From sequence record MT446421.1: a stretch of 64,000 nucleotides of DNA, one strand, 5' to 3'. Positions 128-1,138 of the stretch are shown one piece after another. Positions within the stretch are counted from its first letter, which is position 1; the number at the start of each line of letters is the position of its first letter. The DNA is from Escherichia virus TH55. The notes beneath the pieces are model-generated. The model saw only the letters and a program-made list of their open reading frames with translations. It was not told the DNA's origin and did no database searches. The position numbers and the translations under genes were made by a program.

Positions 128-1138
128 TTAACGATAATAGGAATTGTGGTTGTCAAGGTATACCTCTTCAACAAACTTGTCCCAGAACTTCATGTCCACC
201 TTCACAGGCATACCATTCTTAGCAGCCTGGATGGCCAGAACTTCAACTAAATCGACAGTATCTTCAAGAAGTTCTTGAACTTCTTTAAATGGTAATTCAC
301 CAGCTTTAATCAGCTTAATGATAGAGGCTTCACGCAATGGGAATACCAAGTCACCTGTTTGGTAGATTTCCATCAATTGATACCCTGCACGATATGCATG
401 GCTCAGTGCTTTCCAGTCAATACCTTCATTAGCTTCAGCCTTACGAGCACGTTCACCATATTCGGCGTCGAGTTTATTCAGAGATTGCTTGAGCTCGATT
501 AATGATAGAGTAGTTTGGTATTTACGACCGAGGACAGTATAGAACGTTTGAGGACCTGTTTTCTCATGGTTATGAAATACCCATTCGCAGAACTCGTTTT
601 CAGGGAGCCTGTGTTTGATATCTTCTACCTTAGTACGTCGTTGCTTAGTGGAACCATCTTCTTGATAATCAACCCATTGTTCAGGAATCTGGTTAACAAT
701 TTCCAATACACCACGCAGTGCAGCCAATCGAGAACCTTTAACACCATATTTGGAAGCTTGCTTACGGACGTACCCCAAATAGGCTTTCATGTTAGTTGTA
801 TAGAACCGCGAACGGTTGTCTTGAATAAACTTCCATACATCTGGTAAATCGGATTTGACTACCAGGTCAGCCGGTGTGTGAATCATATCCAGAGCAACGG
901 TTTCGCCTTCGGCTGCCAGTTTAAAGAAATATTTCAGGCTATAAAGTTCATGGTCAACATCATCTTTTGTATTTTTGGTAGCCGTGTTATTCGTGTTCAG
1001 GTTGGTATGGTTCATCGCGGTTCCGAGCAGGATATCTCGCGGATGAGGAACAAAGATTTCTTTAAAATCAACATCAGATTCCGGAGTGCTTGTTCCATAA
1101 AGATGGCTACCGAAGTAGCCTTTCATAACTGTTCTCAT
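128..1138 (-). CDS. putative nucleotidyltransferase (Pol-beta superfamily fold)
   Basis: 336-aa ORF; N-terminal YFGSHLYGTSTPESDVDF matches the G[GS]-x9-13-DxD NTase motif; no T4 core homolog recognised. Confidence 0.4.
   Translation of the reverse strand: MRTVMKGYFGSHLYGTSTPESDVDFKEIFVPHPRDILLGTAMNHTNLNTNNTATKNTKDDVDHELYSLKYFFKLAAEGETVALDMIHTPADLVVKSDLPDVWKFIQDNRSRFYTTNMKAYLGYVRKQASKYGVKGSRLAALRGVLEIVNQIPEQWVDYQEDGSTKQRRTKVEDIKHRLPENEFCEWVFHNHEKTGPQTFYTVLGRKYQTTLSLIELKQSLNKLDAEYGERARKAEANEGIDWKALSHAYRAGYQLMEIYQTGDLVFPLREASIIKLIKAGELPFKEVQELLEDTVDLVEVLAIQAAKNGMPVKVDMKFWDKFVEEVYLDNHNSYYR

Follow-up and report, generated by a model that had tools for sequence, protein, structure and literature searches.

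An ortholog of T4 nrdC.11 in Escherichia virus TH55: a RlaP-family nucleotidyltransferase with a probable role at RNA 3' ends

The window analyzed here, a stretch of 64,000 nucleotides from Escherichia virus TH55 (MT446421.1), carries at positions 128..1138 of the minus strand the ortholog of T4 nrdC.11, which encodes a Pol-beta nucleotidyltransferase (NTase) of the RlaP family (PF10127), 336 amino acids (aa) in length. The catalytic residues of the protein are retained, its bacterial relatives recur beside RNA-repair genes, and Pnk, Rnl1 and Rnl2 are encoded by the same phage. From these observations, and by analogy with characterized members of the family, we infer what activity the clade has, which substrate it uses and what part it plays in infection: the protein is, with reasonable probability, a template-independent RNA 3'-terminal nucleotidyltransferase that would restore nucleotides to cleaved tRNA before resealing by Pnk and Rnl1.

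Identity of the gene and its counterpart in T4

The gene is one unbroken open reading frame (ORF) running from 1138 down to 128, where a preliminary description of this DNA had placed a 336-aa ORF; its assignment here rests on the reading frame, identity to an annotated coding sequence, and Pfam and PHROG matches. The N-terminus of the product is MRTVMKGYFGSHLYGTSTPESDVDFKEIF, also given as MRTVMKGYFGSHLYGTSTPESDVDF. The protein matches PHROG 388, "nucleotidyltransferase" (E = 3.7e-131), and homologs were detected by tblastn in 1517 of 50,697 phage records, with coverage of at least 80% of the protein in 1438 of them. A phmmer search of 1.84 billion cluster representatives, each standing for a protein cluster at 50% identity, retrieved 3205 related clusters with E ≤ 1e-3 and 835 with E ≤ 1e-30. 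Because of the PHROG match, the 1517 phage records and the 3205 matching clusters, the ORF is recognized as a real gene and not a chance reading frame. Over its first 6 kb, the window matches Escherichia phage UPEC07 (MW250787), a T4-type phage classified in Straboviridae, Tevenvirinae, Gaprivervirus, with 100% identity, and the protein itself is 100% identical to the UPEC07 coding sequence QUL77657.1, annotated as "putative nucleotidyltransferase."

The preliminary description, made from the sequence alone, recognized no T4 counterpart of this protein. That claim was mistaken: T4 encodes a syntenic protein of the same length with 82% amino acid identity over all 336 residues (tblastn), and the gene under the match is nrdC.11, located between nrdC.10 and mobD. 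The gene order tk ... mobD.1 - nrdC.11 - nrdC.x is common to T4 and UPEC07, and all conserved motif residues are found in both proteins. Judged by sequence and synteny, the ORF is the ortholog of nrdC.11, an already catalogued gene that was predicted to encode a nucleotidyltransferase in 2006 (COG3541; PMC1524935), and the window holds the copy of that gene from a sister phage genus (Gaprivervirus). Of the original reading, the nucleotidyltransferase fold thus stands, and the novelty with respect to T4 does not. The two phages differ immediately upstream of the gene. In T4, the HNH homing endonuclease gene mobD (6238..7017 of the T4 locus, L002) directly precedes nrdC.11 and overlaps its start, whereas in UPEC07, mobD is absent and its place is taken by a 150-aa ORF (1135..1587, minus strand) for a predicted membrane protein (PHROG 944). 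The other neighbor encodes a MobD.1-like protein (1598..2158; Pfam T4_y05I_N/C).

In the translation start region, read directly from the sequence (1135..1149, minus strand), a GAGG Shine-Dalgarno sequence is present at 1146..1149, 7 nucleotides upstream of the start of the ORF. The start codon overlaps the stop codon of the upstream 150-aa ORF in the form ATGA, and this overlap suggests that the two genes are translationally coupled. A promoter scan near the gene returned 18 candidates compared with 14.9 expected from shuffled sequence, that is, no enrichment. A C(UUCG)G hairpin within codons 7 to 12 (1105..1120, minus strand; GGCUAC-UUCG-GUAGCC) was considered and rejected as a feature, being not conserved in T4 and having a z score of -1.8.

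Several product names in the UPEC07 record and in many related records look propagated by error. The label "thioredoxin" is attached to most nrdC.x ORFs, and in many phages and UniRef entries it also appears on orthologs of NrdC.11. The name "thymidine kinase" is placed on the MobD.1-like ORF, and "major capsid protein" is placed on ORFs of 76 to 77 aa near 13892..14680.

Family membership, predicted architecture and bacterial relatives

The protein almost certainly belongs to the RlaP family. PF10127 (RlaP, "RNA repair pathway DNA polymerase beta family") matches residues 8 to 133 with 48.1 bits (E = 1.6e-12; the gathering score is 23), and a precomputed match to the same family is recorded for all 120 of the closest database homologs. 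The string GS...GTSTPESDVDF, correctly taken in the preliminary description as a Pol-beta signature, occupies residues 10 to 25. In an alignment of 226 homologs, G10 is kept in 225 sequences, S11 in 203 (with alanine in another 22), and D22 and D24 in 224 each, so that the loss of the acidic residues, named beforehand as grounds for abandoning the assignment, is not observed. Further along, D60 is aspartate in 212 homologs and glutamate in 8, D62 in 216 and 9, and D84 in 215 and 7, respectively; R230, K243, H247 and R250, which lie in the helical domain, are kept in 224 to 226 homologs. Given that G10-S11, D22xD24, the carboxylates and the basic residues are all kept across the alignment, the catalytic apparatus is, by sequence, intact. 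There are two candidates for the third metal ligand, D62, which lies in a V-D-H motif on a predicted strand, and D84.

An AlphaFold2 model built from 51 sequences has high confidence (mean predicted local distance difference test score, 92; predicted template modeling score, 0.74). The N-terminal NTase core (residues ~1 to 115; 794..1138, minus strand), delimited by predicted beta-alpha-beta secondary structure and by conservation among the homologs, contains G10-S11 (1106..1111), D22 (1073..1075), D24 (1067..1069), D60/D62 (953..961) and D84 (887..889), all on the minus strand. A long helix (residues 118 to 149) leads into a variable, weakly conserved beta-rich insert (residues ~150 to 210; 509..691, minus strand) with predicted strands at residues 154-158, 164-168, 184-191, 195-202 and 205-208, and this insert falls outside the best PF10127 stretch. 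The segment from residue 136 to 226 is present in all 226 homologs, at lengths of 67 to 110 aa, and shows the lowest conservation within the protein, with column identity down to 0.04-0.4. The C-terminal helical domain (residues 213 to 335; 134..502, minus strand) consists in the model of helices at 213 to 307 and a terminal helix at 316 to 335; in the crystal structure of PfRlaP, the final helix folds back against the NTase domain. The helical domain of the phage protein carries the most conserved motif of the family, YGxRA...DWKAxSHAxR (R230, D241, W242, K243, H247 and R250), with the DWK..R part at 389..418. A long helical region had been described downstream of the signature; the helices are indeed predicted, at 118 to 149 and 213 to 335, although with the beta-rich stretch of residues 154 to 208 between them. 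The model confirms an NTase of the Pol-beta type that bears a helical substrate domain and does not discriminate among functions. Sequence searches of a copy of the Protein Data Bank (PDB) containing no RlaP structure, with the protein and with the 51-sequence profile, gave no match, and a Foldseek comparison of the model with the PDB returned nothing below E = 1e-3.

One genome per prokaryotic species was scanned, yielding 80 loci with full-length homologs (31 to 52% identical to the phage protein), mostly in Desulfobacterales, Nitrospirota and Alphaproteobacteria. The ORFs within 6 kb were clustered, and representatives of the recurring neighbor clusters were annotated with Pfam. RtcB was found at 13 of the 80 loci, Ro60/TROVE at 7, Hen1 at 4 and the Pnkp ligase domain at 3, and 16 distinct loci harbor at least one of these. 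For genes that occur about once per genome, we judge this to be far above chance, which is our own estimate rather than a computed expectation. For example, a Hen1-Pnkp-RlaP operon was identified in an Asticcacaulis metagenome-assembled genome (MAG; L068), and a Ro60-RtcB-RlaP-Hen1-Pnkp island in Nitrosospira (L033). Thus, with repair neighbors at 16 of the 80 loci, the RNA-repair association holds for the clade of NrdC.11, beyond the Pseudomonas cluster. The RlaP homologs of the Hen1-Pnkp and Ro60-RtcB islands resemble the phage protein over its full length (34 to 40% identity; 304 to 340 aa) and share the DWK[AS]xSHAxR motif; however, they are chromosomal and operon-linked to ligases, whereas the phage copy is a stand-alone gene of the early region.

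A different context was seen at three bacterial or MAG loci (L008, L012 and L026), where the NrdC.11 homolog is followed by a 507- to 516-aa protein of the uracil-DNA-glycosylase superfamily and a ResIII/SNF2-type helicase; the Pfam matches behind this module are a uracil-DNA-glycosylase domain on the L008 member and a helicase on the L026 member. The module is distinct from the RNA-repair contexts and may be phage derived or represent a separate conflict system.

Proposed function and competing explanations

The name RlaP derives from gene-neighborhood analysis that placed these NTases beside RNA ligases, and phage RlaPs were predicted to replace, ahead of ligation, nucleotides that cleaved RNAs have lost (PMC7824862). 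A preprint of December 2025 characterizes two Pseudomonas RlaPs, the genes of which lie between rtcB and rtcA. These enzymes attach one or two nucleoside monophosphates (NMPs), or their deoxy forms (dNMPs), to RNA 3'-OH ends; are inactive on 3'-phosphate ends, DNA and protein; prefer Mn2+; favor the 5' half of cleaved tRNA; and increase the aminoacylation of tRNA that lacks one anticodon-loop nucleotide and is sealed with T4 Rnl1 (10.64898/2025.12.29.696909). The same work recalls T4 as the place where RNA repair was discovered and assigns T4 NrdC.11 to cluster 5 of the similarity network for PF10127 (10.64898/2025.12.29.696909). The RlaPs of P. fluorescens and P. aeruginosa belong to the same Pfam family as NrdC.11, for which a similar architecture is predicted (an NTase domain at the N-terminus, then a helical domain that ends in a C-terminal helix), and they share with it the conserved catalytic aspartates and relatives encoded in RNA-repair operons.

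By this analogy, G10-S11, D22, D24 and the third carboxylate (D62 or D84) would hold a pair of divalent metals together with the nucleoside triphosphate (NTP), R230, K243, H247 and R250 of the helical domain would line a cleft for the triphosphate and the RNA 3' end, and one or two NMPs would be added to the RNA 3'-OH. The likely substrate would be the 5' half of a tRNA that has been cut and then trimmed by a host anticodon nuclease, for example, through RloC-type wobble excision. The phage Pnk would heal the ends, NrdC.11 would then replace the nucleotide, and Rnl1 would seal a full-length anticodon loop, which would counter anticodon nucleases that excise nucleotides, RloC among them. What RloC removes is the wobble nucleotide, and its discoverers argued that plain repair by Pnk and Rnl1 should thereby fail (PMC2610378). 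That NrdC.11 is the missing third enzyme of classical T4 tRNA repair, reversing RloC-type lesions deemed irreparable by Pnk and Rnl1 alone, is a tentative extension that we hold to be possible but doubtful; the clade-specific beta-rich insert might serve to select trimmed tRNA.

An Rnl2-type RNA ligase is encoded within the window at 60236..61243 on the minus strand (Pfam RNA_ligase, PF09414, 4.6e-20; T4_Rnl2_C, PF18043, 1.9e-18; "RNA ligase" in GenBank) and is a possible, unlinked partner of the nrdC.11 ortholog; Rnl1 and Pnk are encoded outside the window, elsewhere in the UPEC07 genome. The phage thus has the full set of enzymes for healing and sealing RNA. Counted per genus, the phage records with NrdC.11 and those with Rnl1 are nearly equal in number, with 608 versus 636 for Escherichia, 286 versus 287 for Klebsiella, 83 versus 83 for Shigella, 75 versus 77 for Aeromonas and 69 versus 69 for Acinetobacter. 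In the 64-kb window, ARAGORN detected no more than two tRNA genes, adjacent to each other at 20648..20800 on the minus strand (tRNA-Arg TCT and tRNA-Met CAT), whereas T4 carries a cluster of eight; the phage therefore depends to a greater extent on the tRNAs of the host, a point relevant to its exposure to defenses that target tRNA.

Several points weigh against a role in tRNA repair. The preprint describes NrdC.11 as "of unknown function," and the characterized RlaPs sit in a different sequence cluster (1a, versus cluster 5 for NrdC.11, at 1e-30). The PF10127 match covers mainly the N-terminal 130 residues, essentially 8 to 133, such that the variable insert of ~60 residues (150 to 210) and much of the helical domain are specific to the clade, in contrast to the Pseudomonas RlaPs. 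The phage gene also lies outside any ligase operon: Rnl2 is ~59 kb away, and Rnl1 and Pnk are elsewhere in the genome. The codistribution of NrdC.11 and Rnl1 is weak evidence because each may be no more than a widespread T4-like gene. T4 remains viable in the laboratory when the stretch nrdC.11-mobD.3 is deleted (PMC9825161), so no phenotype anchors a role. Finally, random addition of any of the four NTPs yields the correct tRNA in a minority of products (10.64898/2025.12.29.696909).

The separation of the phage gene from ligase and kinase genes also speaks for another possibility, an RNA 3'-end nucleotidyltransferase with a different task, such as the reconstruction of trimmed tRNA 3'-CCA ends or the addition of tails that alter the stability of RNAs of host or phage. 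In keeping with this, Pseudomonas RlaP labels rRNA-sized RNA and full-length tRNA in addition to fragments, with little NTP specificity (10.64898/2025.12.29.696909), and a phage with just two tRNA genes depends on host tRNAs. We nevertheless regard such a task as rather unlikely: the bacterial relatives adjoin ligases (RtcB and Pnkp), not genes for tRNA maturation or RNA decay, and no match to the families of CCA-adding enzymes and poly(A) polymerases (PF01743) was found in Pfam at E ≤ 1.

Reactions on other substrates appear less plausible than either function at RNA ends. Nucleotidylation of a protein or a small molecule, for example, AMPylation that neutralizes a host toxin as by MntA-type antitoxins or modification of a metabolite or antibiotic as by KNTase/Lnu, is very improbable. 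The type VII toxin-antitoxin antitoxin MntA model of NCBIfam scores 16.5 bits against a cutoff of 60 and aligns only with the 18-residue GS motif (residues 8 to 25), and minimal MNT proteins have a third of the size of the phage protein. No HEPN partner is adjacent, the neighbors being the membrane protein and the MobD.1-like protein, and E. coli proteins are not labeled by Pseudomonas RlaP (10.64898/2025.12.29.696909). Membership in the aminoglycoside NTases was rejected on model scores, and the structural matches that bear on this reading are all weaker than the one to HalB, an extender of nucleic acid chains. The most remote of these functions would be the production of a nucleotide or oligonucleotide, in the manner of cGAS/DncV or HalB, as a signal or decoy to disrupt host immunity. 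Model scores did not place the protein among the cGAS/DncV enzymes (CD-NTases), and PADLOC reported just two weak matches, both to PDC-S09 (E = 0.004 and 0.051). The Hailong protein HalB (PDB 9dbh) and the NTase-like protein 3c18 of the Joint Center for Structural Genomics share 11 to 13% identity with the phage protein, with no sequence-level relationship; moreover, HalB makes oligo-dA in a defense system together with HalA, whereas no such partner accompanies the nrdC.11 ortholog. The cGAS/DncV-like and toxin-antitoxin options raised in the preliminary description thus find no support.

A second gene with a predicted nucleotidyltransferase fold and implications for T4-type phages

A second large ORF with a looser GS...SDWDF pattern, originally delimited as 12911..13891, exists on the minus strand and contains the pattern (G13-S14...D32-W-D34 in the 326-aa version that begins with GTG). 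Translation more probably begins with the ATG at 13870 (12911..13870), because the resulting 319-aa product fits the GenBank coding sequence and the lengths of the homologs. The product matches DUF7277, DUF7275 and PHROG 2141 (unknown function) and is predicted to have a MenT/AbiEii-like nucleotidyltransferase fold. Among 45 homologs, D25, D27 and E69 never vary, G6 and S7 hardly do (numbering of the 319-aa form), and the C-terminal domain is extremely conserved, with the motifs HRYKKN, YDHDxIH, GVYEExCVLALERS and KVCTSITSGWFRE. Homologs are present in 731 phage records. Profile-profile comparison rejected the notion that the two NTase ORFs are paralogs (hhalign probability, 0.2). The syntenic T4 region e.1-e.8 contains no gene of this size; therefore, it is the second ORF, not the first, that appears to have no T4 counterpart. 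No literature on DUF7277 or DUF7275 was found; the family is uncharacterized. Less is understood about this ORF than about the nrdC.11 ortholog, and its product could act at the 3' ends of tRNA.

Two further features lie near the nrdC.11 ortholog. The Tk.4 ortholog (5614..6078, minus strand), ~4.5 kb upstream and transcribed in the same direction, encodes a Macro-domain protein (Pfam Macro, 5.6e-08; PHROG 335, "phosphatase"). Such domains act on derivatives of ADP-ribose, among them by-products that arise when 2'-phosphates are removed from RNA. Another C(UUCG)G hairpin, at 3429..3456 on the minus strand, has a stem of 12 bp and then a run of T. It is located downstream of a 127-aa ORF (3460..3843), MobD.6-like judging from its position, and resembles an intrinsic terminator or an RNA-stabilizing hairpin.

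The gene at 128..1138 is not new to the T4 literature: it was already catalogued, its fold was predicted in 2006, its family was reportedly named in 2016, and the biochemistry of its relatives is described in the 2025 preprint. If the function proposed here is correct, a nucleotide-restoring step would join the textbook T4 repair pathway of Pnk and Rnl1, and a role of NrdC.11 in countering nucleotide-trimming tRNases would be directly testable by existing T4 genetics.
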